Of a DNA stretch of 64,000 bases, positions 12,025-48,258 are shown in pieces. The translations under genes and the position numbers were made by a program. The stretch is taken from the NCBI GenBank assembly GCA_041662665.1, contig JBAZSC010000004.1, positions 10,464 to 74,463 of the forward strand, read 5' to 3'. Each line of letters starts with the position of its first letter. Position 1 is the stretch's first letter. This DNA comes from Patescibacteria group bacterium. GTDB lineage: Bacteria > Patescibacteriota > JABMPQ01 > JAQVVF01. The notes under the pieces were generated by a model that saw nothing but the letters and a program-made list of their open reading frames with translations, had not been told where the DNA came from and did not search any database.

Positions 12025-12501
12025 CTAACATCGTAGCTGAGAATCACAAAGTACATCATCATCAACAACATAATTTTCCAAATCAAATCTCAATTCACCA
12101 GATCTAAAAAGCATCAACACAAAATTAACAATTGCATTATTATGACAATTGTCCGTCAAAAAAATCCGCCGATAACTACCATCAGAATCATAATAGAAAT
12201 AGATATCTGGACTGAAATCACTAATTTCTGCAAGTGTTACTTCCTTTAGATCATCTCTTTGCACATAGCCACCTAGACAATGCTCATCATTAAAAGAATA
12301 TTTTTTCATCTCCACAACAAAATACCTTATTTTTGCAACACTATGATCATATCTTGAAATTGGCTTGATGATCAAAGCTCTTAGACTTTGTTCGATCAAC
12401 ATTGCCGGTTCCTCCTCTTGTAAAAGGGCATCTTTTCTGATAGAATTAATCTCGAAATCGGTAAAACAATTTATTTTAGTACTAAATTCATAAAATGTCA
12501 A
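12025..12501 (-). CDS. Hypothetical protein
   Basis: 158-aa ORF with no recognisable motif. Confidence 0.4.
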   Translation of the reverse strand: MTFYEFSTKINCFTDFEINSIRKDALLQEEEPAMLIEQSLRALIIKPISRYDHSVAKIRYFVVEMKKYSFNDEHCLGGYVQRDDLKEVTLAEISDFSPDIYFYYDSDGSYRRIFLTDNCHNNAIVNFVLMLFRSGELRFDLENYVVDDDVLCDSQLRC

Positions 12502-15044
12502 GTCTTTCCAAAAAATATAATATTTTAGAACAAGAACAAAAATGGCAGAATTTTTGGGATCAAAACAATATTTATAAGTTCAATTCTAGCTCAAAAAAGC
12601 CAATTTTCTCAGTTGACACTCCTCCGCCTTATGCTTCAGCAGCTCATCTTCATGTCGGCCATGCCATGTCTTATACTCAAGCCGAATTTATCATCCGTTT
12701 CAAAAGAATGCAAGGTTTTAATGTTTTTTATCCCATGGGTTTTGATGACAATGGCTTACCAACTGAAAGATATGTTGAACAAAAATACAAAATTGCTGAT
12801 AAATCAAAAATTTCTCGCGAAGAATTTATTCAATTATGTTTAAAAGAAACCAAAGAAGTTGCCAAAACTTATACTTCTCTTTGGAAATCTTTAGGCCTTT
12901 CAATTGACTGGTCTTTATTATACTCAACAATCAGCGAATCATCTCGTCGTATTTCTCAAAAATCATTTTTAGATTTATACAAAAAAGGCTTATTAGAACA
13001 TCGCGAAGAGCCAACAATTTGGTGTCCGCACGACCAAACAGCATTAGCTCAAGCAGATCTTGAAGATGCCGAAGAAAAATCTACACTAAACTATATATCG
13101 TTCGAACTTAAACACTCAAACACTGAAACACCGGAACACTCTGACGATCCGACGCTCCGACGTTCTGACGCTCTCATTATCGCCACTTCCAGACCAGAAT
13201 TATTACCTGCATGTGTAGCTCTCTATGTCAATCCAGACGATGTCCGTTACAAAAACTTAATAAACAAAACTGCCATTGTTCCATTGTTTAATTATGAAAT
13301 CAAAATAAAATCCGACCCCACTGTTGATCCAAAATTTGGGACTGGCTTAATGATGGTTTGTACTTGGGGCGACTCCGAAGATGTTGCCAAATGGAAAAAA
13401 GACAAACTAGACACTAGATTAATTTTTGATAAATCTGGCCATCTTAATGAATGGGCAAAAACTTATCAAGGCTTAGATATAAAAACAGCTCGCACAAAAA
13501 TTTTAGAAGATTTACAAAAACAAAATCTTTTAGTCAAACAAGAAGATATTACTCATGTTTTAAATGTTCATGAACGTTGTAAAACTCCTGTTGAATTTTA
13601 TTTAACTAAACAATGGTTCATTAAAATTTTAGACAATTTAGAGGATTTTAAAAAACAAGGAAACAAAATAAATTGGTTTCCGCTCTTCATGAAAAAGAAA
13701 TATGACACCTGGCTAGATGGCTTAAAATGGGATTGGAATATTTCAAGAGAGCGCTATTATGGCGTCCCATTTCCAGTTTGGTATTGCAAAAAATGTCATG
13801 AAATAATTTTACCTGACGAAAAAGATTTGCCAATTGATCCATTACAAGATCAACCAAAACATCCTTGCCCAAAATGCCAATCGGAAGAATTTGTTCCAGA
13901 AAAAGATGTAATGGACACATGGATGACATCATCATTGACTCCACAAATTAATTCTCATTGGCAAGAACAAGATGAAAACAAAAAACTTTATCCAATGTCT
14001 TTACGGATTCAAGCTTTTGAAATTATCAGAACTTGGCTTTTTTATACAGTTGTAAAATCTTGGTACCATGAAAAAAAATTACCATGGCAGGATGTTATGA
14101 TTTCAGGCCATGGCTTGGATGAACAAGGCCGAAAGATTTCTAAATCATTAGGCAATTATGAACCAGTTGCTAATATAATTAAACGCTATGGTTCTGATGC
14201 TCTGCGTTATTGGTCAGCTGGATCAAATTTAGGAAATAATTTGAGATATAAAGAAGAAGAAGTCAAAGATGGCAAAAAATTAATCACCAAATTATTCAAC
14301 GCTTCAAAATTTAGCTTAATGTTTTTGCAATCCGTCAATCCGTCCGACTTTAAGAACTTTATGAACTTTAAAAACTTTCAACTTCAACCTCTTGATCAAT
14401 GGATATTAAGTAAACTTCAAACAACAATTAAAAACGTTACTGAACATTTTAACACGTACGAGTATTCAAAAGCCAAAAAAGAAGTTTACAACTTTTTCTG
14501 GAAAAATTTTGCTGATAATTATATTGAGCTTGCAAAATCAAGACTTTACAATGATGAAAACAAAGTAGCTAAAACATCAGCTCAAGCAACATTATATATT
14601 TGTTTAATAAATATTTTAAAAATGTTCGCGCCAATCTTGCCTCACATCACTGAAGAGATTTGGCAAGCGTTGCGAGAATTAAACAACGAAACAAAAAAAC
14701 AAGAAAACAGTCCAACTATCGAACAATCAATTCATATTAGTGCTTGGCCAAAAGTTGATAAAAAATTAGTTAACGAAAAGCAAGAAAAACTTGGTGATCA
14801 GATTGTCGAAATTTTAGCCGAAGTCCGAAAAACAAAATCGAATACTAATCTTGCAATGAATAAAGAAATCAAAGAAATAATTATTGATTCTAAAGAAAAA
14901 GATTTAGAAAAATTCTTTCCAGATCTAGCCAATGCCACACATGCCGAACAAATTTCATTTGGCACTGGCGATCTTCACCCTACGAGTGACCACCCGAAGG
15001 GTGGGAAAATTTCTGAAAATCTTAAAATAAAAATTGTTTTGTAG
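12495..15044 (+). CDS. valS: Valyl-tRNA synthetase (class I aaRS; Val assignment from the PPPYAS...HVGHA motif)
   Basis: HIGH region PPPYASAAHLHVGHA and KMSKS region KISKSLGN; 849 aa. Contains in-frame repeat-derived inserts at 13137-13176, 14332-14386 and 14962-15003. Confidence 0.75.
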   Translation: MSSLSKKYNILEQEQKWQNFWDQNNIYKFNSSSKKPIFSVDTPPPYASAAHLHVGHAMSYTQAEFIIRFKRMQGFNVFYPMGFDDNGLPTERYVEQKYKIADKSKISREEFIQLCLKETKEVAKTYTSLWKSLGLSIDWSLLYSTISESSRRISQKSFLDLYKKGLLEHREEPTIWCPHDQTALAQADLEDAEEKSTLNYISFELKHSNTETPEHSDDPTLRRSDALIIATSRPELLPACVALYVNPDDVRYKNLINKTAIVPLFNYEIKIKSDPTVDPKFGTGLMMVCTWGDSEDVAKWKKDKLDTRLIFDKSGHLNEWAKTYQGLDIKTARTKILEDLQKQNLLVKQEDITHVLNVHERCKTPVEFYLTKQWFIKILDNLEDFKKQGNKINWFPLFMKKKYDTWLDGLKWDWNISRERYYGVPFPVWYCKKCHEIILPDEKDLPIDPLQDQPKHPCPKCQSEEFVPEKDVMDTWMTSSLTPQINSHWQEQDENKKLYPMSLRIQAFEIIRTWLFYTVVKSWYHEKKLPWQDVMISGHGLDEQGRKISKSLGNYEPVANIIKRYGSDALRYWSAGSNLGNNLRYKEEEVKDGKKLITKLFNASKFSLMFLQSVNPSDFKNFMNFKNFQLQPLDQWILSKLQTTIKNVTEHFNTYEYSKAKKEVYNFFWKNFADNYIELAKSRLYNDENKVAKTSAQATLYICLINILKMFAPILPHITEEIWQALRELNNETKKQENSPTIEQSIHISAWPKVDKKLVNEKQEKLGDQIVEILAEVRKTKSNTNLAMNKEIKEIIIDSKEKDLEKFFPDLANATHAEQISFGTGDLHPTSDHPKGGKISENLKIKIVL

Positions 15045-20355: not shown

Positions 20356-20452
20356 ATCTCAAATTCCAAACAAATACCAAATCACAATACACAAAGATTT
20401 TTGGAATTTGGAATTTGGAATTTGTTTGGGATTTGGAATTTGGGATTTTAAT
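20344..20452. repeat. Long inverted repeat, caaattccaaa family
   Basis: tacaaatctcaaattccaaacaaatacc... pairs with ...ttggaatttggaatttggaatttgtttgggatttggaatttggg. Confidence 0.7.
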
Positions 20453-21023: not shown

Positions 21024-21162
21024 ATCAAGAATTATGATTAGAATTATGAATTACTGAATAACGATTTTTTTAATTTTCATAATTCTCAATTCAATATTCA
21101 AATCATCATTCATAATTCATCATTCATAATTCATAATTCATAATTCATAATTCATAATTCAC
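21010..21162. repeat. Imperfect inverted oligo-repeat (gaattatga / tcataattc words)
   Basis: gaattatgaatcaagaattatgattagaattatgaatt lies opposite (cataattcat)n x about 6. Confidence 0.6.
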
Positions 21163-24152: not shown

Positions 24153-26000
24153 TTATCTTCCGATTGCATAATATCTTTCCGAATAATTAAATGGCGAACT
24201 TAAATAAATCATAAAAGTATTTTTTTTAGTATTCGGCTTGACTTGCAAATCCGCCCATTCTCTTGATTCAGAATTATATAATTTTAGATAAAGATTTTTC
24301 TCTTTCAAACCTTTTACCTTTTTCTTTAAAGCCTTAAATTCTTTATTAGTATAAGAAAATACTAATTTTAATTTTACTGGTTTGCTAGAATTATATTTTT
24401 GATAATCAGTTTTAATTTTCCAATATTTCTTTATCAAATTATGCTTTGCGTCAACAAAAAGTTTCGTATACTTTTTTTGCCTCTCAACCAAAAAATATCT
24501 TTTTGTCTTTTTAAAACTTTTTGGAAATTTTTTGAAAGTCAAATTTAATTCTCTTGCATAATATTTTTTATTTTTTTTCTTGATTTTAACTTCATTCTTT
24601 TTCTTGGATTTTTTTGTTGTAAATTTTGGATTGCCAACATATTTAACAATTTGTGAAACAACATCTGATTCAGCATGCCAAGCATCTCTATATTTTACAT
24701 AAACAGTTTTCTTGCCTTTTTTTGCTGGCATTTTAAATGTCTTATCAGCCAAATAACTTTGCCAAGTTTTGTTTGAAAAATCAGATTTTGTTGACACAAT
24801 CATTTCGACCGGACTTTCAGTCAAAGAAGATGTAATATGAATTTTTCTATAAGCAGAATATTTACGTCCATAATTTATTTCTGTTATTTGATTTGAAGGA
24901 CCAGGAGTATTAGCAAGTTTTAATTTCTCGCTTGTCTGATCATAATATGCGATATAGGCTCTGTTTTTTGAATCCACATCCAAAGATGGATAACCAACAA
25001 CATCGCTGTCATTCAAAGTATTTTTTACAAAAGAATCAGTTACATTGCTCATATAGCCTATCCAATTTCCTCCTCCAACTGTTCCGCCATAATAACTTAA
25101 ACGAACCTTATTATCAGAATCTAAAGCTAAAGAATTATTAAATGCTGTAAAATCAGGCAAGATTTCACTATCCATATCGCTTATCGTCCAATTACTGTCT
25201 GCCGTTGTTTTAGTCGCATATTTAAGCGTCGTATTAGGATTAGCTAAATACAAATAAGCCAAATGTGCTGTATTATTGCTATCAAACTTCAAAGAATTAA
25301 AATAACCAGTTCTATAAGTACTATCAATCGCGCTCAATACCCAACTGCCGGAAACATTAGTCGCATATTTCAAATAATCATTTGTCCCTTCAAAATAAGC
25401 AATATGAACTTTATTATTAGAATCAATAGCCAGAGAATTAAACGTTCCACTATTATCAACCGTATCCAAAGTCTCATAAACCCAATCACCAGTAACATTA
25501 GTCGCATATTTCAAATGATCATTAGTACCATCATAATAAGCAATATGCGCCTTATTATTTGAATCCAAGGCTAAAGACGGATATGAACCAGCTTCAATTG
25601 TCGGATCTAAAATTGTTACTTGCCAAGAACCAGAAGCATTAGTCGCATACCGCAATTGATCTTCAATCATAGCATAATAAGCCAAATAAAAATTATTATT
25701 AGAATCAACTGCCGAAGAAATAAATAATCCTGCATAAAGAGTATCATCAACAGTCTGTTGCTCCCAAGCCCCAGAAGCATTTGTAGCATACTTTATTTTA
25801 TGATCAGTATTATCAAAATAACCAATATAAATCTTATCATTACTGCCAACTTTTAAAGAAACAACAGCCGCACCTTCTGACACCATTGGCACGTTTCCCA
25901 TATCAGCCACATCGCTAAAAACCCAATCAGCAGCCTTAACATTTTGGCCAAAAATAAACAAAGTAAAAACAACAATCAAAATTAACAATCCTTTTTTCAT
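24153..26000 (-). CDS. Secreted repeat protein, paralog 2 of 6
   Basis: Same architecture: signal peptide, 7 repeats, beta module after the TPGPS linker, and a lysine-rich C-terminal domain ending RYYAIGR. Confidence 0.8.
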   Translation of the reverse strand: MKKGLLILIVVFTLFIFGQNVKAADWVFSDVADMGNVPMVSEGAAVVSLKVGSNDKIYIGYFDNTDHKIKYATNASGAWEQQTVDDTLYAGLFISSAVDSNNNFYLAYYAMIEDQLRYATNASGSWQVTILDPTIEAGSYPSLALDSNNKAHIAYYDGTNDHLKYATNVTGDWVYETLDTVDNSGTFNSLAIDSNNKVHIAYFEGTNDYLKYATNVSGSWVLSAIDSTYRTGYFNSLKFDSNNTAHLAYLYLANPNTTLKYATKTTADSNWTISDMDSEILPDFTAFNNSLALDSDNKVRLSYYGGTVGGGNWIGYMSNVTDSFVKNTLNDSDVVGYPSLDVDSKNRAYIAYYDQTSEKLKLANTPGPSNQITEINYGRKYSAYRKIHITSSLTESPVEMIVSTKSDFSNKTWQSYLADKTFKMPAKKGKKTVYVKYRDAWHAESDVVSQIVKYVGNPKFTTKKSKKKNEVKIKKKNKKYYARELNLTFKKFPKSFKKTKRYFLVERQKKYTKLFVDAKHNLIKKYWKIKTDYQKYNSSKPVKLKLVFSYTNKEFKALKKKVKGLKEKNLYLKLYNSESREWADLQVKPNTKKNTFMIYLSSPFNYSERYYAIGR

Positions 26001-26050
26001 TATTTTATTTTAATTAACTTTTAACTTTAGATTTTAGACTTTTAACTCAC

Positions 26051-27895
26051 CTATCTGCCGATAGCATAATATCTTTCCGAATAATTAAATGGCGAATTTA
26101 GATAAATAATAAAAGTATGATTAGTTGTATCAGGTTTAACTTGTAAATCAGCCCAACTATCAGATTCAGAAACATAATATTTCAGATGCAAATTCTTTTC
26201 TTTTAATCCTTTAACTTTCTTTTTCAAAACTTTGAATTCATCGCTAGTATACTGAAATACTAATTTTAATCTAACTTGCTTGCTTCCTGTATATTTATTA
26301 AAGTCAGTATTTACTTTCCAATATTTTTTTAACAAATTGTGCTTTGCATCTGCAAAAAGTTTTGTGTATTTTAATTGTCTTTCAATTAGAAAATATCGCT
26401 TTGTATTTTTGAATTTAGTTGGATATTTTTTGAATTTAAGCTTTAGATCTCTTGCGTAATAAGTTTTATTCTTTTCTTTAACTTTCACTTCATTAGATTT
26501 CCTTGCTTTTTTTGTTACAAACTTTATTGGATTGCCAGTATATTTTACTTCTTGAGAAACAACATTAGATTCAGCATGCCAAATATCTCTGAATTTCATA
26601 TAAACAGTATTTTCACCTTTTTCTGATGGCATTCTAAATGTTGTATCAGCTGAATATGTTTTCCAAGTTTTATCTGAAAAATCAGATTTTGTTGAAACGA
26701 TCATTTCTGTTGGAGTTCCTGCAACTGTTGATTTTATATTAATATTTCTTGTTGCTGAATAATTTCTACCATTATTTATTTCAGAAGAAGTGATACTTGG
26801 ACCAGGAGTGAAAGCATAATTCAAATCATTATCAGTAGTATTATAATATGAAATATGAATACGATTATTTGAATCTACGTCAAGTGAAATTTGATTATAG
26901 TATCCAAATAATACCACTATGTATGATCCAACATTATCAATCACATTATATGTCCATGACCCTGAAGTATTAGTTGCATACTTTAATTGTTGCTCAGTAA
27001 CATCATAATAACCAATATGTACACCATTATTGTTATCAACAGCTATCGAAGTATTATATCCTGCTTGATTTGCCGTATCCAAATTCGTTGCAACCCAAAC
27101 ACCAGTAGAATTAGTAATGTATTTCAAATCTAAATTTGTAGCATCTAAATAACTAATATGGATGCTATTGTTAGTCCCAATCGCCAAAGAAGAATACCAT
27201 CCAGCCTCAACTGAATTATCTAAAGTACTTGTTGACCAAACACCAGACAAACTATTCGTCGCATATTTTAGAGTACTATTAGTTTCATCACGATAACTAA
27301 TATGCGCAAACCCATTTGAATCAATACCAAGCGAATTAAAAATGCCCACATCACCAACTGAATCAACTGTTGTCAACACCCAAGAACCGGTTGCATTAGT
27401 TGCATATTTTAAATCACTATTAGTTGAATCATAATAGCTAATTTGAACCGCATTATTTGCATTCAATACTATTGATGTATTATTTATATCAAAAATACCT
27501 ACTGTAATAGTACCTGAATTATCAACAGTTGTAGCAACCCAAGAACCAGAAGCATTTGTGGCATATTTCAAATTACTATTAGTATCATCAATATAACTAA
27601 TATGAGATTTGTTATTACTATCAATTGCTATTGAAACACCTTCGCCTACGTTTCCTGCACTATCTACAGTTGTAATAGCCCACGAACCTGACTCATTTGT
27701 TATATATTTCAAATCATTAGTACCAACTTCAAAATAAGCAATATGCACAAAGCCATTATGATCAACAGCAATCGCATTATCAGCGCCAGTATTTACAGCA
27801 TCGATTGAAGATTTCTGCCAATCCGCAGCCTTCACATTTTGGCCAAAGATAAACAAACCAACAATGGCCAGACAAATTAATAAATACTTCCGCAT
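26051..27895 (-). CDS. Secreted repeat protein, paralog 3 of 6
   Basis: Same architecture; ends RYYAIGR. Confidence 0.8.
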   Translation of the reverse strand: MRKYLLICLAIVGLFIFGQNVKAADWQKSSIDAVNTGADNAIAVDHNGFVHIAYFEVGTNDLKYITNESGSWAITTVDSAGNVGEGVSIAIDSNNKSHISYIDDTNSNLKYATNASGSWVATTVDNSGTITVGIFDINNTSIVLNANNAVQISYYDSTNSDLKYATNATGSWVLTTVDSVGDVGIFNSLGIDSNGFAHISYRDETNSTLKYATNSLSGVWSTSTLDNSVEAGWYSSLAIGTNNSIHISYLDATNLDLKYITNSTGVWVATNLDTANQAGYNTSIAVDNNNGVHIGYYDVTEQQLKYATNTSGSWTYNVIDNVGSYIVVLFGYYNQISLDVDSNNRIHISYYNTTDNDLNYAFTPGPSITSSEINNGRNYSATRNINIKSTVAGTPTEMIVSTKSDFSDKTWKTYSADTTFRMPSEKGENTVYMKFRDIWHAESNVVSQEVKYTGNPIKFVTKKARKSNEVKVKEKNKTYYARDLKLKFKKYPTKFKNTKRYFLIERQLKYTKLFADAKHNLLKKYWKVNTDFNKYTGSKQVRLKLVFQYTSDEFKVLKKKVKGLKEKNLHLKYYVSESDSWADLQVKPDTTNHTFIIYLNSPFNYSERYYAIGR

Positions 27896-27951
27896 AATTT
27901 TTTTGTTTTAAATTTTTAAATTTCTGAAACTAAATTTATATAAATTATATA

Positions 27952-29802
27952 TTATTTACCAATTGCATAATATCTTTGCGAAAAATTAAACGGAGATTTC
28001 AAATAAACCGTAAAAGTATTTTTCTTTGTATTGCGTTTAGCTGACAAATTAGTCCACTTTTTTGATTTCAAATTATATGCTTTTAGATATAAATTCTTTT
28101 CTTTCAACCCTTTTACTTTTTTCTTTAATTTTTTAAATTCTTTTTTAGAATATGAAAATACTAATTTTAATTTAACATTCTTACTTAATTTATATTTTGA
28201 AAAATCAGTATTAATTTTCCAATATTTTTTTAACAAATTATGCTTTGCATCCACAAAAAGTTTTGTAAATTTCTTTTTTCTCACAACCAAAAAATATCTT
28301 TTTGTTTTTTTAAAAGCTTTTGGATATTTTTTGAAAGTCAAATTTAATTCTCTAGCATAATATTTTTTATTTTTCTTTTTAATCCTTACTTCATTTTTTT
28401 TCTTCGCTTTTTTTGTAACAAACTTTGGATTACCGACATATTTGACATTAAAAGATACAACAGCAGATTCAGCACTATAGACATCTCTAAATTTAACGTA
28501 AATTGTTTTTATGCCTTTTTTTGAAGGCATTTTAAAAATCGTATTAGCCAAATAACTGCTCCAAATCTTATTAGAAAAATCAGACTTTGTCGAAACAATC
28601 ATTTCAGTAGGACTGCCAGAAACTGAAGATGCAATATTAATTTTTCTATAAGCTGAATAATCCCTTCCATTATTTATTGTTATTGTTTGAACTGAAGGTC
28701 CAGGAGTATAAGTATAATTCAAACTAGTATTAACTAAACCAGCACTAGTTTTAAAATAAATAACATGTGTTCGATTCATTGAATCTATTCCTAACGATAT
28801 TGGACGATAATATGCATTAAAAGTTTCAAAAGAAAACAAAAGACTGTACGATCCAGTATCCTGTTGATTATAAATTGACCATTGTCCAGAAACATTTGTC
28901 GCGTATTTTAATCTGCCATTTAAAATATCATGATAAGCAACATGCAATTTATTATTATCATCAATTTTTAATGAAGGATAATAGCCCACTTGACCTGCAC
29001 TGTCATTATCAATAACACTTGCAACCCATGCTCCTGAAATATTAGTAATATATTTTAAATCAGAGTTAGTATAATCCAAATAAGCAATATGAATTTTATT
29101 ATTTGAATCAATCGCTATGGAAGACTGAAGACCTACCGATCCATTAGAATCTAAAACTACAGATAGCCAAGAACCACTATCATTAGTAATATATTTTAAA
29201 TCGGAATTAGTAGTATCACGATAAGAAATATGCACCTTATTATTTGAATCCAATGCCAAAGAAGAACTACCTCCAACATCAGTACTAGAATCTATTGTTT
29301 CATTTGCCCATGAACCAGACACGTTTGTCGCATATTTCAAATTGCTATTATCTGAATCATAATAGCTTACATATATTTTTTTATTTCCATCCAAAGCCAT
29401 TGATACTTGTCCCAAGCCAATAGTTCCACTATTATCAATTATCTCGAAAACCCATGTTCCATTAACATTATTCGCATATTTTAACCAATCATTCGTTCTA
29501 TCTTCATAAACAATATATACTTTTCCATTAACATCTATTCCCAAAGAAGAATTACCAACATTAACAGAGTTATCAACAATTTCTGCCATCCAAGTACCAG
29601 AAGAATTAGTCGCATATTTCAAATCAGAATTAGTATTATCAAAATAACTAATATGAACTTTGTTATTTTGATCAATTGCTAATGCATTAACACTTCCAGC
29701 AGATGCCTCCAATTCCTGCGACTGCCAATCAGCAGCCAAAACATTTTGGCCAAACAGAAACAGACCAACAATGGCCAGACAAATTAATAAATACCTCCGC
29801 AT
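27952..29802 (-). CDS. Secreted repeat protein, paralog 4 of 6
   Basis: Same architecture; the 7 repeats are counted explicitly; ends RYYAIGK. Confidence 0.8.
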   Translation of the reverse strand: MRRYLLICLAIVGLFLFGQNVLAADWQSQELEASAGSVNALAIDQNNKVHISYFDNTNSDLKYATNSSGTWMAEIVDNSVNVGNSSLGIDVNGKVYIVYEDRTNDWLKYANNVNGTWVFEIIDNSGTIGLGQVSMALDGNKKIYVSYYDSDNSNLKYATNVSGSWANETIDSSTDVGGSSSLALDSNNKVHISYRDTTNSDLKYITNDSGSWLSVVLDSNGSVGLQSSIAIDSNNKIHIAYLDYTNSDLKYITNISGAWVASVIDNDSAGQVGYYPSLKIDDNNKLHVAYHDILNGRLKYATNVSGQWSIYNQQDTGSYSLLFSFETFNAYYRPISLGIDSMNRTHVIYFKTSAGLVNTSLNYTYTPGPSVQTITINNGRDYSAYRKINIASSVSGSPTEMIVSTKSDFSNKIWSSYLANTIFKMPSKKGIKTIYVKFRDVYSAESAVVSFNVKYVGNPKFVTKKAKKKNEVRIKKKNKKYYARELNLTFKKYPKAFKKTKRYFLVVRKKKFTKLFVDAKHNLLKKYWKINTDFSKYKLSKNVKLKLVFSYSKKEFKKLKKKVKGLKEKNLYLKAYNLKSKKWTNLSAKRNTKKNTFTVYLKSPFNFSQRYYAIGK

Positions 29803-29874
29803 AATTTTTTTGTTTTTATTCCACCAAAGTTCCGCAGAACGTAGGTGGATTAATTTTTAAAAACTTAAAATAAA

Positions 29875-31686
29875 CTATTTTATTCCAATCCCAAAAGTCC
29901 TTTTGCTAAAAGAAATTGGAGAATCAATTATTAAAGTAAAAGTTCTCTTTTTTAAATTTAAAGTTGCAAATGAATTTTTCCACTTTTTCTTTAATTTATT
30001 GTAATATAATAATTTCAAATCACTTTGTTTTAATGTCTTATTATTCTTTTTTAATTTTTTGAATTCTTTTTTAGAATAATTAAAAGTCACTTTTAATCTG
30101 AAATTATTCTTGGCTTTTTTATAAGTATATTTATTTAAATCATCTGTCACTAGCCAATATTTTTTTAATAGCTTATTTTTGTCTATTTTCTTAAAATAGT
30201 TACTGAATAATTTTGATTGAACAAAATATTTTTCTTTTTTTAAATTTTTTGGATATTTTGTCATTACAAAATTCAAATCTCTCGCAGAATAAACCTTGCC
30301 TTGCTTTTTCAACAAAACTTCATTAACTTTTCTAGCCTTTTTTGTTACAAATTTTGGATTTTTAATGTATCTAATTGTCTTTGTTAAAGCACCTGATTCA
30401 GCAAACCATTGATCTCTGAAATTGACATAAACTGTTTTTGTTCCATCAACTTTTGATAAAGTAAAAATCTTTGATGTATCATAAGCTTCCCAATTTGCAT
30501 TTGCAAAATCAGCATTTTCAGAAATTATCATTTCAGTTGGACTGCCTGCTGAAGATAAAGACAATGCTACTGTTCTTAAGGCAGTATATGCTTTATTAGA
30601 ATTAATCTTTAAACTTGTATTTGTTGGTCCCATAGAAGCAGCGTATTTTAAATCGCCATTTGTATGATCCTGATAAGCAATATGAATTCTATTTAGATCA
30701 TCAACCTTAATTGAAGTTTGAAAACCTAAAATTAAAGTATCGCTTCCTTGATCAACAATATATTTCTGAAAGGTTCCTGAAATATTTGTCGCATATTTCA
30801 AAGAATAATTTGGATAACCATCATGATAACTAATATGAGCATAATTATTTTTATCCAAGCTCAAACTAGAAAACATTCCAGTCAATCCTCCTGCTAAAAC
30901 TGCAGTATCAATTGTTGTTTTCTGCCAACTTCCAGATAAATTTGTAATATATTTCAAAGCTTGCACTCCGCCATCATAATAGCTAACATGCACTTTATTA
31001 TTTGTATCAACAGCAATTGAAGAATATTGTCCAACTCCTCCATTATCAATTGCTGAGCTTAAAAAAGATCCTGATTCATTTGTTGCGTATTTTAACCATT
31101 GATTACTGCTATCATAATAGCTAATATGAGCTTTGCCATTTGAATCAACTGCAATTGATGTATTGCTTGTAGAAGATAATGTTTCTACATCGTAGAAAAA
31201 CCAAGTTCCAGATGACTTGATTGCATATCTAACTTTTGATCCATTATAATAGCTAATATTCAATCGATCACTTGAATCAATCGCCATATCCACAAAAGTC
31301 CCGCCCAAAGCATCTAAAACAGAATTTCCCCAATTTCCTCCAGCATTTGTGGCATATTTCAAATCATCATTTACAGCATCATAATAAGCAATATGAATTT
31401 TGTTCGCTGAATCAACCACTAAAGAAGGATAAAGCCCAACCATTACTGAACTCTCGTCAATTATCGTAATTTGAAAACTGCCAGAACTATTAGTCGCATA
31501 TTTTAATTTACCATCACCAAGATATGCAATATGAACATATCCTAACGAATCAACACTAATTGATGTTCCATCTCCAGCAAAACCAGTTGCATCAACTGTT
31601 GTTTTTTGCCAATCTGCTGCCAACACAGTATGACCAAACAACATCAGGCAAAACATTGCCACCAAAATTAATAATTTCTTTTTCAT
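29875..31686 (-). CDS. Secreted repeat protein, paralog 5 of 6 (more divergent)
   Basis: Signal peptide, LKYATN repeats, beta module and a lysine-rich tail ending FGIGIK. Confidence 0.75.
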   Translation of the reverse strand: MKKKLLILVAMFCLMLFGHTVLAADWQKTTVDATGFAGDGTSISVDSLGYVHIAYLGDGKLKYATNSSGSFQITIIDESSVMVGLYPSLVVDSANKIHIAYYDAVNDDLKYATNAGGNWGNSVLDALGGTFVDMAIDSSDRLNISYYNGSKVRYAIKSSGTWFFYDVETLSSTSNTSIAVDSNGKAHISYYDSSNQWLKYATNESGSFLSSAIDNGGVGQYSSIAVDTNNKVHVSYYDGGVQALKYITNLSGSWQKTTIDTAVLAGGLTGMFSSLSLDKNNYAHISYHDGYPNYSLKYATNISGTFQKYIVDQGSDTLILGFQTSIKVDDLNRIHIAYQDHTNGDLKYAASMGPTNTSLKINSNKAYTALRTVALSLSSAGSPTEMIISENADFANANWEAYDTSKIFTLSKVDGTKTVYVNFRDQWFAESGALTKTIRYIKNPKFVTKKARKVNEVLLKKQGKVYSARDLNFVMTKYPKNLKKEKYFVQSKLFSNYFKKIDKNKLLKKYWLVTDDLNKYTYKKAKNNFRLKVTFNYSKKEFKKLKKNNKTLKQSDLKLLYYNKLKKKWKNSFATLNLKKRTFTLIIDSPISFSKRTFGIGIK

Positions 31687-31763
31687 GATTTTCCCTCGTC
31701 CGCCATGCTTCTTCGCTTAAGCGAAGAGCGAAGGCGGATATTAAATAGTAATTATTTTAAAAT

Positions 31764-33614
31764 TTATTTTTTTCCTATTGCATAATAAATTTCATTCCAA
31801 GATATCGGCGAAATCAAAGTGATAGCAAATGTCCTATTTTTCACAGAATGTACGGCATTTAAATTATGCCATTTCTTTTCTTTAACATTATAATATTTTA
31901 AAACCAAACTACTTTCTGACAAACCTTTATTTCTATTTTTTAAAGTCTTGAATTGCTTTTTTGTATATTTAAAAACAAATTTAGTTTTAAAATTATCAGC
32001 TAATTTATATTTATTAAAATTACCTTTTATTTTCCAATATTCTTTAATCAAATTTTTCTTGGCTGCAATATAAGTTTTTGAATATTTTCTATATCTTTTT
32101 ACTTGCCAAGAATATTTTGCTTTTTTCAAACCTTTTGGCAATTTCAAAAATTTTAAATAAAATTTTTGAGCAGTATATTTTTTATTTTTCTTTTTTATTA
32201 AAATTTCTTTGCTTTTTGCATTTTTTGTTACAAAAGTTGGATTTGGCAAATATTTAATTGAATCAGAAACAGTTGCTGATTCCGCATACCATTGATCTCG
32301 AAATTTTACATAAATAGTCTTTTTGCCAACCCTAGAAGACATTTCAAAAACTTTATTCACATTATATGTTTCCCATTCTGCTCCAGCAAAAGTAGAATAT
32401 TCAGACAACATCATTTCTGTTGGATTGCTAGTTGCAGATAAAACCAAATCAACATCTTTAAAATTTGTATATTTTTTACCTGCTTCTATTACAACTTCTG
32501 GACTTATTGGACCAAGTACATCAGCAAATTTTACTTCACCATCCCAAGGAGAATAAGTATGCAGATAAAATAGACCAACGTAAAGTCTGTTTGAAGAATC
32601 CATAGCCAAAGAAATTGGCTGTTCAGCTGTATGAATTGCATCTCCAATATCACTAACAGCTACAGTTGAAAAACTTGTCCCAACATTATTTGCCAGCTTA
32701 AAATCAAAGTTATCCACATCATAATATCCAATTCTTACTCTTGAATTGCTATCAACTACTAGAGAAGAATATATTCCAACATCTCCAGCAGTATCAACTG
32801 TCGAATTTGACCAATAGCCCAACATATTATTTGCGTATTTCAAATCTCGATTCCCGCGATCATAATAACTAATATGAACGAAATCACTATCGTCAATTTT
32901 TATTGAACTAAACTCACCAACATTACCGCTATCAACGGTTTGAGCCACAAAATTTCCAGAAGAATTTGTAATATATTTTAAAGATAGATTTGCCGAATCA
33001 TAATAACTGATATGGACTTTATTGTAATCATCAACAGTTAATGAAGAAAATAGTCCGACAAAAGTACTACTGCTATCTATTGTTGATAATGTAAAACCAG
33101 TTCCATTAGAATTTGTTGCGTATTTTAAATCGTCATTTGTTAAATCATAATAACTAATATGCACATAACCTAATGAATCAACACCAATCGAATCATACAT
33201 ACCAACTTCGCCTGTTGTATCAATTGATGATGCTGCCCACACTCCAGAAGCATTAGTCGCATATTTCAAATCAGAATTAGCATAATCATAATAACTAACA
33301 TGCGCCTTATCATTATAATCTATTGCAATTGATGGATACTGTCCCAAACCAGAACCAAGATCAATTGTTTCACTCACAAAACTGCCAGATGCGTTTGTTG
33401 CATATTTTAGATAATAAGTTGCACCAGTTGTCTCTAAATAAACCAGATGCGCTTTGCTATTTGAATCCAAAGCAATTGCCACAATAGGACCAACACCTAC
33501 TCCTCTCGACAATGACTCAAATTGCCAATCCGATGCCTTTGCTTGACCAAAAAAACAAAAGACACAAGACAACGTTGCAAAAACCACTCCTAAAATTAGA
33601 GATTTTTTTCTCAT
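31764..33614 (-). CDS. Secreted repeat protein, paralog 6 of 6 (more divergent)
   Basis: Signal peptide, LKYATN repeats and a lysine-rich tail ending YYAIGKK. Confidence 0.75.
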   Translation of the reverse strand: MRKKSLILGVVFATLSCVFCFFGQAKASDWQFESLSRGVGVGPIVAIALDSNSKAHLVYLETTGATYYLKYATNASGSFVSETIDLGSGLGQYPSIAIDYNDKAHVSYYDYANSDLKYATNASGVWAASSIDTTGEVGMYDSIGVDSLGYVHISYYDLTNDDLKYATNSNGTGFTLSTIDSSSTFVGLFSSLTVDDYNKVHISYYDSANLSLKYITNSSGNFVAQTVDSGNVGEFSSIKIDDSDFVHISYYDRGNRDLKYANNMLGYWSNSTVDTAGDVGIYSSLVVDSNSRVRIGYYDVDNFDFKLANNVGTSFSTVAVSDIGDAIHTAEQPISLAMDSSNRLYVGLFYLHTYSPWDGEVKFADVLGPISPEVVIEAGKKYTNFKDVDLVLSATSNPTEMMLSEYSTFAGAEWETYNVNKVFEMSSRVGKKTIYVKFRDQWYAESATVSDSIKYLPNPTFVTKNAKSKEILIKKKNKKYTAQKFYLKFLKLPKGLKKAKYSWQVKRYRKYSKTYIAAKKNLIKEYWKIKGNFNKYKLADNFKTKFVFKYTKKQFKTLKNRNKGLSESSLVLKYYNVKEKKWHNLNAVHSVKNRTFAITLISPISWNEIYYAIGKK

Positions 33615-39395: not shown

Positions 39396-39518
39396 TTTGG
39401 CAGAAGAATCTTGAATCTAGAATTTGGAATCTAGAATGAATAATGAATTTAGAATACAGAATTCTCGATTCTAAATTCCAAATTCTATTCCAGATTCTAG
39501 ATTCCAGATTCTATATTC
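39396..39518. repeat. Inverted oligo-repeat element (gaatctagaat words)
   Basis: ttgaatctagaatttggaatctagaatg is paired with cagattctagattccagattctat. Confidence 0.6.
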
Positions 39519-40582: not shown

Positions 40583-40618
40583 ACTAATTTTCCGACGCTC
40601 TGACGTTCTGACGCTCTG
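40583..40618. repeat. 8-nt tandem microsatellite, about 4 units of CTCCGACG/GACGCTCT
   Basis: tccgacgctctgacgttctgacgctctg. Confidence 0.7.
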
Positions 40619-40620
40619 AT

Positions 40621-40648
40621 TTTCCGAAATAAAAAAGAGCCCATTAGG
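40621..40648 (-). terminator. Terminator of island gene A
   Basis: The minus-strand RNA forms agaguccuaaugggcucu followed by U6. The identical sequence recurs at 41431-41458. Confidence 0.65.
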
Positions 40649-40666
40649 ACTCTATAAAAAAGAGCT

Positions 40667-41203
40667 TCAGTTCATCTTCATCCTGTAAGCTTCACAAACC
40701 TTGAAAGTCAGACTTCCCCGAAAATCATAATAGTTGGTAGCACGCTTGCCATTTCCATTCACTGGCAAGTTTTCATAATCGTAAAAAGTTGAATCGTCAA
40801 TGTGACTCAACGAAATCTTTCGAGCCATTTTGCGATTCACATTGATTGCAGTCATCATTCGACCCTTGTATCGCTTCGGCCGATGTCCACCGATCAACCG
40901 CTCAGCGCGACGATTGTCTTCACCAACCTTCACGCCAACAGTCAACAGATGACGCCGCCTCAAGTTCGAATAAGGAGTGCCATTCCCACGTTCACCATGA
41001 TGTTTTCCAGTCCCGGCAACAGGCTTGCCCCGAACCGGATCTCTCATCCATTCCATCACATTCTTCTTCTCTTCACGCTTCCTTTCCACTTGCTTTCGCA
41101 CTTCTTCGTCATACGACATCCTGTTCTCAATTTCTCTTCTCTGATAGTCTCTGTCAGCAGTATTCTTGTTTGCAACACAAGCAGTATCTCGATGAATGCC
41201 CAT
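40667..41203 (-). CDS. Island protein A, hypothetical (AGTGKHHG-motif family)
   Basis: Start reassigned to the ATG at 41203, preceded by ggagggaaagag (SD). The ORF-track N-terminal extension (TTG start at 41311) contains the sigma70 promoter. The product is charged and R/K/E-rich. Confidence 0.6.
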   Translation of the reverse strand: MGIHRDTACVANKNTADRDYQRREIENRMSYDEEVRKQVERKREEKKNVMEWMRDPVRGKPVAGTGKHHGERGNGTPYSNLRRRHLLTVGVKVGEDNRRAERLIGGHRPKRYKGRMMTAINVNRKMARKISLSHIDDSTFYDYENLPVNGNGKRATNYYDFRGSLTFKVCEAYRMKMN

Positions 41204-41273
41204 CTCTTTCCCTCCACGCGCCTGTTTTTCCAGGCTGTTCGTCCCTCCACGACACCAGAAAACAGAATAAAAC

Positions 41274-41301
41274 ATTATATCACAACCATATAATTTGTCA
41301 A
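41274..41301 (-). promoter_or_regulatory. Canonical sigma70-type promoter of island gene A (TTGACA-N16/17-TATAAT)
   Basis: The minus strand reads ttgacaaattatatggttgtgatataat. Confidence 0.65.
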
Positions 41302-41378
41302 GATTTTTCAATATTTAAGCTTATTTAAAACAAAAAAACTACAAACATTTCCGAAAATCTGACAATCAGAAGCTCAGA

Positions 41379-41428
41379 AGTCTGACGCTCCGACGCTCCA
41401 ACGCTCCGACGTTCCCACGTTCCCAAAT
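41379..41428. repeat. 8-nt tandem microsatellite (CTCCGACG)n, about 6 units
   Basis: gtctgacgctccgacgctccaacgctccgacgttcccacgttccc. Confidence 0.7.
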
Positions 41429-41430
41429 AA

Positions 41431-41458
41431 AAAAGAGCCCATTAGGACTCTACAAAAA
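41431..41458 (-). terminator. Terminator of island gene B (identical to that at 40621-40648)
   Basis: aaataaaaaagagcccattaggactct. Confidence 0.65.
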
Positions 41459-41477
41459 GGTACAAATTACAAATAGT

Positions 41478-42248
41478 TCAATCGAATACAACTGGTACGA
41501 ACCCACCCTGATTGTGCCAAGGCATATGCTCTCCCATCGCAAATCCGAAAGGATCTTCAAACCGACGATCTTCCAGATCCTCAATCTTTGGAACCTTCCA
41601 ATTCGAACTCCGATCTGTAACAACTCGATTCAGCTTAGGATCGAACATTCTGAATTGAAGCCCATCTTGACTGAAAAGATCCGCATTGAAATGGATTCCT
41701 CCATTCCTATCTTCTGCATCTTCATCTTCATCATGTTCATCAAACTGCTCAAAACTCTTCCCATCAGAAGAATTGTCATCATCTTCACAATCGTCTTCAT
41801 CCTTATCATTCACATCATCAGCACAAATGTAAGCAACAGCCGGTTCAGGCACATCGTTGATAGTCTTTTTCTTTGAAATGGCCACAAGTTCCTCAATCGT
41901 AACCTGATGCTCTTCCCTGAATTGCCGATCGATCTCAGCTTCCCATTCCTGAATGGTCGAATCATCAGCTTCACTCAAAGTCATCTTCCTCAAAACCAGA
42001 TCACGATGTTCACTTTCCATATCATGCACACCCTTCGGCTGTTTCGTTCCAATCAACCTTGTTCCACACTTCAAACGAATTGTACAAGTTGATTCACCTT
42101 GTCCAGAATCACCATGATGCTTTCCAGTTCCAGCAATTGGAAAACCCCTTTCCGGAGCAATGTAAGTTCGCTTCTCCCCTTTCTCTGCAAGTTCGTTCAG
42201 CCTCATCGTATGATAAACACGCTTCTGATCCTTGGACAACCGAGCCAT
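41478..42248 (-). CDS. Island protein B, hypothetical paralog of A (AGTGKHHG motif) with a long poly-acidic tract
   Basis: Start reassigned to the ATG at 42248, preceded by gcggagggaaagagaa (SD). Shares RGFPIAGTGKHHGDSGQG and RLIG with protein A. Contains the acidic stretch DDVNDKDEDDCEDDDNSSD...DEHDEDEDAED. Confidence 0.6.
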   Translation of the reverse strand: MARLSKDQKRVYHTMRLNELAEKGEKRTYIAPERGFPIAGTGKHHGDSGQGESTCTIRLKCGTRLIGTKQPKGVHDMESEHRDLVLRKMTLSEADDSTIQEWEAEIDRQFREEHQVTIEELVAISKKKTINDVPEPAVAYICADDVNDKDEDDCEDDDNSSDGKSFEQFDEHDEDEDAEDRNGGIHFNADLFSQDGLQFRMFDPKLNRVVTDRSSNWKVPKIEDLEDRRFEDPFGFAMGEHMPWHNQGGFVPVVFD

Positions 42249-42372
42249 TTCTCTTTCCCTCCGCGCCACCAAAACTTCTTGTTTGGTGGTCGTTTTCCCG
42301 CTTTTTTCTCTTGCGGGTCCCATCGATCTCGTACCCAAAATAACATAGAACTAACCAGAAATATAGCATTTT

Positions 42373-42401
42373 ATTCTATCATTAAAAAATAAAAATGTCA
42401 A
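42373..42401 (-). promoter_or_regulatory. Sigma70-type promoter of island gene B (TTGACA-N17-TAGAAT)
   Basis: The minus strand reads ttgacatttttattttttaatgatagaat. Confidence 0.6.
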
Positions 42402-42467
42402 TAGAAATCAAAAATACCAACTTTTTGGCTTTAAAAAGACAAGAAAAATATCATAAATTTGAGTGGT

Positions 42468-42546
42468 GGCGTTCTGACGATCCAAAGCTCCCACGCTCCG
42501 ACGCTCCGAAAGTCCCACGCTCCGACGCTCCCACGTCCCACGTTCC
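42468..42546. repeat. 8-nt tandem microsatellite, about 9 units (CTCCGACG/CTCCCACG)
   Basis: gttctgacgatccaaagctcccacgctccgacgctccgaaagtcccacgctccgacgctcccacgtcccacgttccc. Confidence 0.7.
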
Positions 42547-42548
42547 CA

Positions 42549-42580
42549 AATAAAAAAATGGCATCAAAGCCATTAAATAA
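42549..42580 (-). terminator. Terminator of island gene C
   Basis: The minus strand forms aatggctttgatgccatt followed by T7. Confidence 0.6.
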
Positions 42581-42587
42581 AGAACAA

Positions 42588-42941
42588 CTACAACTTTTTT
42601 GCTTCTACTCTTCTTTCAATTTCTCGCCTTACAGCCGACAACACACCTTGAGGCATCAGCTTCGAATCAAAATTCGTCCAACGAAAAATTTCAAAACCTA
42701 CTTTGATTTCACCCAAAGCAATCACTTCTCTCGCAATTTCCAACCTTTTCTGCAAATAATCCAAATCTTCCTTTCTGCACCATCCTCTCCTTTCAAATCC
42801 AAATTCATCAAAACCCCAGTCTGCCAAAACATCATCTGGATGATCAAAAAAATCTGTTTTGTGATCACCCTCGAAAGGATAAAAAACAGTACCACGCCTA
42901 ACAAAAATATCATTCAATGCATACTTCCGACCCTTATCCAT
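42588..42941 (-). CDS. Island protein C, hypothetical 117 aa
   Basis: Strong SD aaaggagagg 5 nt from the ATG; a 7-bp GC hairpin in the leader. No recognisable domain. Confidence 0.55.
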   Translation of the reverse strand: MDKGRKYALNDIFVRRGTVFYPFEGDHKTDFFDHPDDVLADWGFDEFGFERRGWCRKEDLDYLQKRLEIAREVIALGEIKVGFEIFRWTNFDSKLMPQGVLSAVRREIERRVEAKKL

Positions 42942-42994
42942 TTCCTCTCCTTTGCCTGTCTCCCCCTTTTGACAGGCTTTTTTTGCACCTTAAA

Positions 42995-43022
42995 AGTATA
43001 TCAAAATTTTTCATAAAGTCAA
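42995..43022 (-). promoter_or_regulatory. Sigma70-type promoter of island gene C (TTGACT-N16-TATACT)
   Basis: The minus strand reads ttgactttatgaaaaattttgatatact. Confidence 0.55.
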
Positions 43023-43081: not shown

Positions 43082-43117
43082 CAACCGTTCGTTCTCTTGA
43101 CAACAAGGGGGGAAAAA

Positions 43118-43918
43118 ATGCCTCCATTCAGCCAAACAAGATTAAATATCAACAAAATGCTTTTTGAACGAAAATGGTTTCAAAATACTGATGCTAATAT
43201 CGTTCAAAAACTCTTCAATTTGCCTGAAGCTTGTAATGGTTTTTTGGAAGATCTAGCAATTCGTCCTGAACAAATTGGCAAATGGACACTTTCCAAAATC
43301 TCTGAAATCTTCATTCCATTCAATGAACGTGCCTGGAACATTTACATCGTTTTTGAAATCAAAAATCAGAATGATGAAATCAGTCATTTCCAATACCATT
43401 CTTGGCAAAAAGGACCTTCGTCTGGAGTCAAAGGCATTGTTTTGATCAAAGATAAGACTTCTGGAAAAATCTCACACTTTGTTTTATTACAAGGCTATAA
43501 ATTTGGAGCAGGAGTACTAACTTTCGATTGTATTGGTGGCTTTGCTGAAGATGGTGAAGAAAATGAAGCCGGAATGACACAACGATTCCGCACTGAAATG
43601 AAAGAGGAGCTGGGACTTCCAACCTTGCCTCCTCATCAAATTGTTTCTCTTGGCAGATTTAATCCAGATGCTGGGATTTCCAATAACAGACCTTTCTTGA
43701 TGGTTGCAATTGTTTCTTCTGAACATTTGCCATACATCGAAACATCAAATCTCCCTAATCCAAGCACATTTGAAAACGTTGCAAAAATCATTGTTCCAGT
43801 TTCCGAACTTGCAAGATTTGTTGACAATTGCGAAGACTCGTTCTTTCATGTCTGCATTACCAGACTTTTAGCCAAAGGCATTACTCTTTCCACCAGCCCC
43901 ATCTCAACTCACCCTTAA
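43118..43918 (+). CDS. Island protein D, hypothetical with a degenerate Nudix-like box in its C-terminal half
   Basis: GGFAEDGEENEAGMTQRFRTEMKEELGL approximates the Nudix box GX5EX7REUXEEXGU with a one-residue shift. Start at the ATG after the G-rich SD. Confidence 0.45.
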   Translation: MPPFSQTRLNINKMLFERKWFQNTDANIVQKLFNLPEACNGFLEDLAIRPEQIGKWTLSKISEIFIPFNERAWNIYIVFEIKNQNDEISHFQYHSWQKGPSSGVKGIVLIKDKTSGKISHFVLLQGYKFGAGVLTFDCIGGFAEDGEENEAGMTQRFRTEMKEELGLPTLPPHQIVSLGRFNPDAGISNNRPFLMVAIVSSEHLPYIETSNLPNPSTFENVAKIIVPVSELARFVDNCEDSFFHVCITRLLAKGITLSTSPISTHP

Positions 43919-43934
43919 GTGAGTTTTTTTATTC
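43903..43934 (+). terminator. Terminator of island gene D
   Basis: actcacccttaagtgagt followed by T7. Confidence 0.6.
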
Positions 43935-44101
43935 CTTGTCAACCGTAATGCCTTCAAAATTTAGTTTCAAAAATTAAGGGATTTAGAAAATAAGAAAATT
44001 AAAATAAATTCATATCATATTTTTAAGGCATGAAGGTTGAACAAAAAAATCGCAATAGCGATTTAATTTAGAGTTATTTAAATAAATAAAAGTTTATTTT
44101 T

Positions 44102-48146: not shown

Positions 48147-48258
48147 AAATCTCAAATTACAAACAAATCTCAAATCACAAAGATACAAACTTTAAATCCT
48201 ATTTTGTAATTTGTCTTTTGTAATTTGTTTGGAATTTGGAATTTGGAATTTTCGTAAC
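48147..48258. repeat. Long inverted repeat, caaattccaaa family, overlapping the 3' end of the 48192-49766 gene
   Basis: Left arm ctcaaattacaaacaaatctcaaatcacaaag; right arm gtaatttgtcttttgtaatttgtttggaatttggaatttggaatt. Confidence 0.7.

Follow-up and report, generated by a model that had tools for sequence, protein, structure and literature searches.

An orphan family of Patescibacteria proteins with basic-core and acidic-tail forms, encoded in self-contained cassettes at a variable chromosomal slot

Introduction

Several well-known proteins, including HMGB1, T4 gp32, T7 gp2.5, and bacterial SSB, combine a basic binding domain with an acidic tail, and gp32 also autoregulates via its own structured leader. 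Here, we describe a pair of related genes, A and B, and a neighboring gene, C, in a 64-kb stretch of contig JBAZSC010000004.1 from a Patescibacteria group bacterium (GenBank assembly GCA_041662665.1). We refer to this whole stretch as the window and number positions from its first nucleotide. Similar to HMGB1, gp32, gp2.5, and SSB, the B-type proteins have a basic N-terminal part and then a strongly acidic tract, and their C-terminal end is aromatic or hydrophobic. However, we detected no sequence or fold similarity to these proteins, and neither an OB-fold nor an HMG box; the proposed analogy is functional only.

Other described systems share individual features with this locus. The high density of Asp and Glu in B recalls Ocr and ArdA, but B has no homology to either and no mobile-element context, and its acidic part is short, of low complexity, and predicted to be disordered. 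Similar to the autoregulatory mRNA leaders of ribosomal proteins and of other genes, the 5′ untranslated region (UTR) of B-type genes is conserved and structured, shows compensatory changes, and ends at the Shine-Dalgarno (SD) sequence; unlike those leaders, it belongs to no Rfam family and its hairpins do not sequester the SD. Antigenic variation of the pilE/pilS type provides a precedent for a recombination-driven variable locus, and here too a coding region that is mosaic and evolves fast is enclosed by conserved flanks on its 5′ and 3′ sides; however, no silent donor copies were seen in the 64-kb window and the product has no export signal evident by eye.

Lastly, phage morons are autonomous accessory cassettes with their own promoter and terminator and a GC content unlike that of their neighbors, inserted between genes that are conserved in relatives (PMC3594210). 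A, B, and C resemble morons such as HK97 gene 15 in having their own promoters and terminators, a deviant GC content, and conserved neighbors. Unlike morons, the A/B/C locus is chromosomal, syntenic, and apparently vertical, with no nearby phage genes and no relatives in phages or IMG/VR, and in the A/B family conservation across genomes lies in the regulatory flanks, whereas the cargo differs.

Results

Genes A and B are both on the minus strand. Gene A (40667..41203, ATG at 41203, counted from the ATG that follows the SD) encodes a 178-amino-acid (aa) protein with a pI of 10.1 and a net charge of +17, which comprises the family core alone and is the NCBI hypothetical protein WC663_05815 [Patescibacteria group bacterium]. 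Gene B (41478..42248, start at 42248) encodes a 256 aa protein with a pI of 4.7. The two proteins are 37% identical across 89 residues of a collinear core (BLASTP, E=2e-11), and a tblastn search of the window returned A and B as the only family copies (E ~1e-9). Within the core, A carries PVAGTGKHHG (40994-41023) and B carries PIAGTGKHHG (42111-42140, in the basic core), and this region doubles as a 48-nt DNA repeat of 75% identity (40992-41039 vs. 42109-42156). An earlier, sequence-only reading of the window had proposed that A and B are paralogs with a common P[VI]AGTGKHHG motif; the comparison bore out the paralogy, and the peptides that it quoted were all recovered, correctly placed, from the minus-strand open reading frames (ORFs) of A and B. 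The motif itself was drawn too narrowly: it is present in A and B, but its form across the family is [AESK]GTGKH[HR], with a variable second His.

By sequence comparison, A and B belong to an orphan family, the distinct members of which are A and B of the window, A′ and B′ of a related contig (L001), and the members at loci L009, L005, L006, and L010. All are on AT-rich contigs, and every member that has a name or informative flanks comes from closely related Patescibacteria: L009 is a “Candidatus Saccharibacteria” metagenome-assembled genome that carries P0004, and L010, Patescibacteria STF1_73, carries a new family member. A word-indexed search of 5.8 billion clusters with B, A, and a family profile as queries returned only the window proteins and P0002, P0004, P0005, and P0006. 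When 1.84 billion representatives were searched exhaustively with a HMMER profile, the result was the same set plus two spurious repeat proteins, with no homologue in other organisms; P0007 and P0008 were dismissed as family members on this ground, and L008 was set aside as unrelated. JGI metagenomes yielded nothing beyond the same genome, and there were no relatives in IMG/VR, INPHARED phages, or PLSDB plasmids. A DNA pattern made from the B leader only, run against 596 Gb of GTDB genomes, matched two loci, both in Patescibacteria and both directly 5′ of a family member; a GTDB scan with the narrow protein pattern G[KFC]P[VI]AGTGK gave zero matches.

The earlier statement that the motif lies outside any described family also stood. 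Six members were scanned against Pfam, PHROGs, PADLOC, and NCBIfam with no credible match (0 families among the PADLOC defense models), PDB sequences gave no match at E<=10, and the literature gave nothing specific to the A/B family or to GC-biased conversion in these bacteria. No characterized housekeeping family was found to match the core. A likeness to ribosomal protein bL27 (GTKFH.G.N.G.G vs. GTGKH.G..G.G) was rejected by hhalign, which gave a probability of 0.1% over 6 aligned columns in a comparison with the E. coli L27 sequence. Three further candidates were discarded by eye: a Walker-A P-loop, as the spacing does not fit GxxxxGK[ST]; an AT-hook (RGRP), as its second Arg varies between K/E/Q/F/V/C; and a His/Cys zinc site, as the Cys and the second His are not conserved.

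The N-terminal core of the family is basic and Gly/Arg-rich (W.RDPVRG.P..GTGKH...G.G....LR...G.RLIG). It is followed by long helices (DDSTF.EWE.EI.R), then an acidic low-complexity tract, and then one of two C-terminal modules (…FEDPFG..GE..WHN..FVPV and …LPSPEAQ.F.RGE..F), the distribution of which is independent of overall relatedness. In B, a helical middle part and an acidic tract at residues 144-180 (41709-41819) lead to the module FEDPFGF..WHN..GFVPV. The acidic tract had been described as a stretch of ∼40 residues that B possesses in addition to the shared parts; its size is about right (37 residues with 22 Asp/Glu), but it is not an addition of B, as every full-length member has one and A is the form that has none. 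B-type members have a pI of 4.5-5.0, and in those that keep the core, residues 21-100 carry a net charge of +1 to +15 while later 20-residue blocks go down to −9 to −13. The overall composition is Gly 6-11%, Asp+Glu 21-25%, and Lys+Arg 13-17%, with 34-40% charged residues. AlphaFold models from a 6-sequence alignment were unreliable in both runs (predicted local distance difference test [pLDDT] 48 and 52, predicted template modeling score 0.21 and 0.18), showing long helices and low-confidence regions only, with a pLDDT of ∼40 in the motif region and <50 in the acidic tract.

Since single-copy genomes carry the bipolar form, the ancestral protein probably combined a basic core with an acidic tail, and A represents a copy of the core alone. 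L001 carries both the A and B types in the same order as the window. There, B′ precisely lacks codons 2-49, including the GTGKH motif, which the adjacent A′ retains, suggesting that the protein is now effectively encoded in two pieces, the core by A′ and the tail by B′. This split offers a natural dissection of a basic-core/acidic-tail protein.

The A/B family genes are genuine protein-coding genes. A single reading frame is preserved over seven divergent members, with indels in frame, differences between members rank 3>1>2 by codon position (72/46/84 for window B vs. L001), and the ratio of nonsynonymous to synonymous divergence (dN/dS) is 0.39-0.69, below 1 everywhere. In AT-rich genomes, a GC-rich island often turns out to be a structured RNA, and several frames of the block hold long ORFs, so a structured noncoding RNA or a chance ORF was weighed as an alternative. 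We consider it very improbable given the single conserved frame, the second codon position being the least changed, the properly spaced consensus SD, and the lack of an Rfam match. The long antisense ORFs over A, B, and the L009 (313 aa) and L010 genes are codon-aligned reverse complements and were rejected as artifacts; by frame arithmetic, they exist because the gene avoids TTA, CTA, and TCA codons. An N-terminal extension of B from an upstream TTG (ORF 41478..42338), the frame of which is open in four loci, was also rejected: the extension has no SD, a consensus SD precedes the ATG, and the sequence between TTG and ATG behaves like hairpin-forming RNA.

Each of the three genes A, B, and C forms a monocistronic, self-contained cassette made up of a near-consensus sigma-70 promoter, a 5′ leader with a strong SD, an ORF, an intrinsic terminator, and a period-8 array. 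They lie in the only large GC-rich block of the window (40601-42800, GC 0.40-0.51, peak 0.51), the mean GC of which is 0.314 (300-nt windows). Transcription of A, on the minus strand as for B and C, would start from a TTGACA-16-TATAAT promoter (41274..41301; 12/12 with an extended TG), the start site being placed from the −10 box. The A leader (41204..41267) contains a GCCTG/CAGGC hairpin (41220-41235) and ends with the SD GGAGGGAAAGAG (41204-41215), and the terminator (40626..40653) is followed by a period-8 tandem array (40583..40625, GACGCTCY on the plus strand). B has a TTGACA-17-TAGAAT promoter (42373..42401; 11/12, extended TG), a leader (42249..42366) with hairpins P1 (CCCGC/GCGGG) and P2 (CCACCAAA/UUUGGUGG) ahead of the SD, a terminator at 41424..41451, and an array between this terminator and the A promoter (41373..41423). 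The region upstream of the B promoter, to ∼42450, is also kept in L001 and L010.

The sequence-only reading counted two proteins, which stand, but a third cassette has the same architecture. Gene C (42588..42941, 117 aa), for which the family libraries gave no relatives, has a TTGACT-16-TATACT promoter (42995-43022; 10/12, extended TG), a leader within 42942..43022 with a GCCTGTC/GACAGGC hairpin (z = −3.7) ahead of the SD AAGGAGAGG, a terminator at 42557-42574, and the longest of the three arrays (42465-42555). In L001 and L010 too, a C-type terminator precedes the B-type gene. In each cassette, the final leader element is a hairpin 2-4 nt ahead of the SD, and the array, with the 8-nt unit GACGCTCC on the plus strand, is directly beyond the terminator.

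We found that all six B-type loci have a leader of ∼85-95 nt, in which the SD comes after two hairpins. In a structural alignment of 15 pairs, fitted to the structure by hand and covering six sequences that fall into essentially two clades, 93% of cells were paired and 5 pairs had changed on both sides (P1, C-G<->U-A; P2, A-U<->C-G, C-G<->A-U, and A-U/G-U/G-C). None of 500 shuffles reached the covariation score (0/500), slid controls paired at 26-47%, and RNAalifold recovered the same two hairpins from an unsupervised alignment. The hairpins leave the SD unsequestered. In an Rfam 15 scan of the window, only two tRNAs reached the gathering score, and the A/B/C island gave chance-level matches (E>=0.25), making the structured leader a candidate for a new cis-regulatory RNA. 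A covariance model of the B leader scored strongly only at the six B-type loci. The A leader matched weakly (14 bits, E=0.07), which indicates that the A and B leaders share little beyond the last hairpin and the SD. Another weak match (43879-43956, 17 bits) was discarded, as it is the tail and terminator region of another ORF, D.

The family gene occupies the same chromosomal slot wherever flanks are visible, and three genomes are syntenic. The gene order in the window is ruvB, a 74 aa membrane protein, a bPH_2 protein, queA, [A, B, C], D, and Wzy_C; in L010, ruvB, the 74 aa protein, bPH_2, and queA are followed by a lipoprotein gene, a B-type gene, an 8-mer array, and a C-type terminator; and in L009, the 74 aa protein and bPH_2 are followed by a B-type gene, a cNMP-binding-like protein, and Wzy_C. 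The flanks in the window comprise ruvB, bPH_2, queA, Wzy_C, and PMT_2 genes, and we saw no phage protein families among them. ORF D (43097-43918, plus strand, 273 aa, GC 0.38) is divergent from C and has no family match, but has a Nudix-box-like stretch (GGFAEDGEENEAGMTQRFRTEMKEELGL) by eye. Its place in L009 is taken by the 341 aa protein, which is cNMP-binding-like by eye, and a 141 aa lipoprotein-like gene adjoins the B-type gene in L010 and L006. These differing contents show that the whole queA/bPH_2-wzy interval is variable. Overall, the variable slot of the family, flanked by bPH_2/queA on one side and wzy on the other, belongs to one group of closely related Patescibacteria.

The coding sequences in this slot evolve ∼3-14× faster than the neighboring genes: flanking orthologues are 73-94% identical (dN 0.04-0.19), whereas B-type proteins are 36-40% identical (dN 0.58-0.67). 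The transcription units are also mosaic. Between L005 and L006, identity is 95-100% in the leader, the N terminus, and one middle block, but falls to 35-47% between these blocks and in the C-terminal module. In every pair, conservation is highest in the promoter, leader, and 3′ UTR; A and its L001 copy are 90% identical in promoter and leader vs. 73-76% in the coding sequence, and window B and L009 are 54-78% identical in promoter and leader vs. mostly 28-50% in the coding sequence, with peaks in the 60s-70s. The 3′ UTR of the GC-rich B-type genes (L004/L009, L005, L006, and L010) is conserved (∼100 nt after the stop), ending …TTGTTCTTTGTTnnAGACTTC…GGAGTCTTTTT. A similar terminator module follows the neighboring lipoprotein gene in L006 and L010, which suggests that this element has been reused within these genomes.

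A and B had been proposed to derive from a tandem duplication on the basis of three collinear motifs, a common SD context, and identical terminators. The last two observations were confirmed: exactly two copies of the SD block GGAGGGAAAGAG exist in the window, one ahead of A and one ahead of B, and the terminator hairpin AGAGTCCTAATGGGCTCT with its T-run is identical after A (40636-40653) and B (41434-41451). The regulatory flanks are indeed locally duplicated (a 70-nt repeat of 84% identity). The coding cores behave differently, as the A core scores 47 bits against B vs. 77-79 bits against L009 and L005, and L001 A′ is closest to L010 and L006. Given that the cores are no closer within the window and that L001 has both types, either any duplication is old or the copies were drawn from a shared allele pool. 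Tandem duplication therefore holds for the regulatory flanks and is, for the coding parts, ancient at best.

The family genes also differ in GC content at third codon positions (GC3). Their GC3 reaches 0.77-0.81 in L009, L010, L005, and L006; for the family genes of the window and L001, it is 0.37-0.46. All other genes examined in those genomes have values of 0.18-0.31. Synonymous sites of the flanking orthologues are near saturation (dS 0.9-1.7), so the GC3 excess must be either upheld by an active process or re-imported again and again. No donor lineage emerged, as there was no homologue elsewhere among the 1.84 billion representatives. Candidate causes are GC-biased conversion at a recombining locus and selection on the mRNA.

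Discussion

The charge layout above all, together with the strong expression signals and the conserved leader, points to a strongly expressed, leader-regulated protein with a basic core that may bind polyanions and an acidic tail that may modulate this binding. We propose this reading tentatively and with low confidence. The polyanion would most likely be a nucleic acid, and the acidic tail would mask the core, or compete for it in cis, as in HMGB1, T4 gp32, T7 gp2.5, and SSB, with A supplying a free, unmasked core. Expression would be high, and its control would act through the two-hairpin leader and the conserved sequence near the promoter, with the protein itself as a possible regulator via the leader. 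Such a protein may serve in nucleoid or RNA handling, or in phage or host antagonism. Several points weigh against this proposal. Nucleic-acid binding is without support from homology or fold (pLDDT 48 and 52, and ∼40 at the motif), the leader is tied to the protein by position alone, and its covariation comes from the small, hand-fitted, two-clade alignment described above. Furthermore, relaxed constraint on a disordered protein would explain the mosaicism and the high dN/dS no less well than a specific function would, and the GC3 excess is outside what the model explains.

An alternative, to which we give somewhat less credence, is that the slot is a diversifying conflict locus encoding effectors or inhibitors directed against phage, competitors, or the host cell of these probable episymbionts, and varied by recombination with an allele pool. 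This would account for the contrast between family dN (0.58-0.67) and flanking dN (0.04-0.19), the sharp boundaries between the 95-100% and 35-47% blocks of L005 and L006, the two interchangeable C-terminal modules, the variation of copy number and neighbors among genomes, and the finding that A-type genes are nearest to alleles of other genomes. However, disordered proteins are also expected to evolve fast and dN/dS is <1 everywhere; all cassettes are monocistronic with no toxin/immunity-type partner gene, PADLOC, PHROGs, and Pfam gave no match, and inspection by eye, with no predictor applied, showed neither a signal peptide nor a transmembrane segment. Fast drift would equally be expected if the family were a hydrophilin, a late embryogenesis abundant (LEA)-like protein, or a disordered chaperone, that is, an abundant charged protectant whose exact sequence is of little importance. 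Hydrophilins and LEA proteins are recognized by Gly >6% with very high hydrophilicity, or by membership of a LEA Pfam family, and the composition of the A/B family roughly agrees with the first of these (Gly 6-11%, Asp+Glu 21-25%, Lys+Arg 13-17%); the strong expression signals and the AlphaFold output, limited to long helices and low-confidence regions, are also in line with such a protein. Nonetheless, we regard this reading as quite unlikely: the sharply conserved core motif and FEDPFG..GE..WHNP..FVPV argue for specific contacts, no LEA or hydrophilin family was matched, and the A/B split and the GC3 excess would be left unexplained.

The sequence-only reading had suggested a DNA-mimic or anti-restriction role for B, and this suggestion fared poorly. 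The 37-residue tract with its 22 Asp/Glu, the similar tracts in all B-type members, and a cassette anatomy and deviant GC reminiscent of phage morons, which frequently carry anti-restriction and anti-defense genes (PMC3594210), speak in its favor. However, B has no likeness to Ocr, ArdA, ArdB, KlcA, or any phage or defense model and no phage, plasmid, or IMG/VR relatives, and its acidic part appears to be a short low-complexity segment, predicted by AlphaFold at low confidence, rather than a folded, elongated surface whose carboxylates imitate the phosphate pattern of B-DNA. A resident chromosomal gene in a syntenic position among housekeeping genes also has no obvious need to evade restriction, and we consider the role improbable. 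The sequence-only reading also named a chaperone-like tail, a possible role on which the results bear neither way. The same deviant composition (GC 0.40-0.51 vs. 0.31; GC3 0.37-0.81 vs. 0.18-0.28 for host genes) and the autonomy of the cassettes could instead mark a recent foreign island, either the remnant of a prophage or integrative element or a transfer from a high-GC donor. Against this, the same slot is used in three related genomes whose flanking genes are near synonymous saturation (dS 0.9-1.7); the promoters, leaders, and UTRs are conserved and have an AT-rich composition like that of the host; we found no integrase, attachment-type flanking repeat, or adjacent tRNA; and no other organism among the 1.84 billion representatives has a homologue. 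A recent arrival appears improbable as well.

At its most speculative, the proposal of a leader-regulated polyanion-binding protein can be extended to the locus as a whole. We think it doubtful, but conceivable, that the slot is a recombination hotspot of an undescribed kind in reduced episymbiont genomes: a fixed “expression socket,” made up of the conserved promoter, the two-hairpin leader RNA, and the 3′ UTR, that would exchange mosaic alleles of a bipolar, nucleic-acid-binding protein, with local GC3 pushed up to 0.8, against 0.2 in the genome, by mRNA selection or GC-biased gene conversion, and with the leader as a new autoregulatory RNA motif bound by the GTGKH core. The GC3 excess in an AT-rich, reduced genome could in any case provide a clean natural test of GC-biased gene conversion vs. 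mRNA selection in bacteria. A family with no annotated or structurally characterized relative belongs to the “dark matter” of uncultured ultra-small bacteria. Its very narrow distribution, about one genus and seven sequences, limits its wider impact until an activity is demonstrated.

Other features of the window

Upstream of the B promoter −35 box is a conserved stretch (TTTTAAGCCAAAA…; window 42402-42450, L001 130-175, L010 7830-7870), which runs the other way in L009 (2270-2300; TTTTGGCTTGAA). Just past the −10 box is a small palindrome, GATAGTTCTATC. Both the stretch and the palindrome are possible protein-binding sites. Elsewhere, the minus strand at 24153-33614 carries five tandem paralogous ORFs of 603-616 aa; two of them were scanned, both without a Pfam match.

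Intergenic regions throughout the window are rich in period-7/8 tandem repeats, including TTTGGAA ×7 and TTCATAA ×12.6 among others (for example, at 20400-20448, 21076-21161, 39405-39437 with 39467-39518, and 48203-48251). They often form inverted arrays near gene ends, able to fold into long hairpins, and the GC-rich 8-mer arrays of the A/B/C block appear to be a local flavor of this genome-wide repeat habit. The same 8-nt array is also found at 13100-13172, inside a class-I aminoacyl-tRNA synthetase gene (ORF 12495..15044), where it reads …AAACACTC AAACACTG AAACACCG GAACACTC TGACGATC CGACGCTC CGACGTTC TGACGCTC. As this array is in frame, encoding …ELKHSNTETPEHSDDPTLRRSDA…, it represents a repeat-derived insertion in an essential gene.

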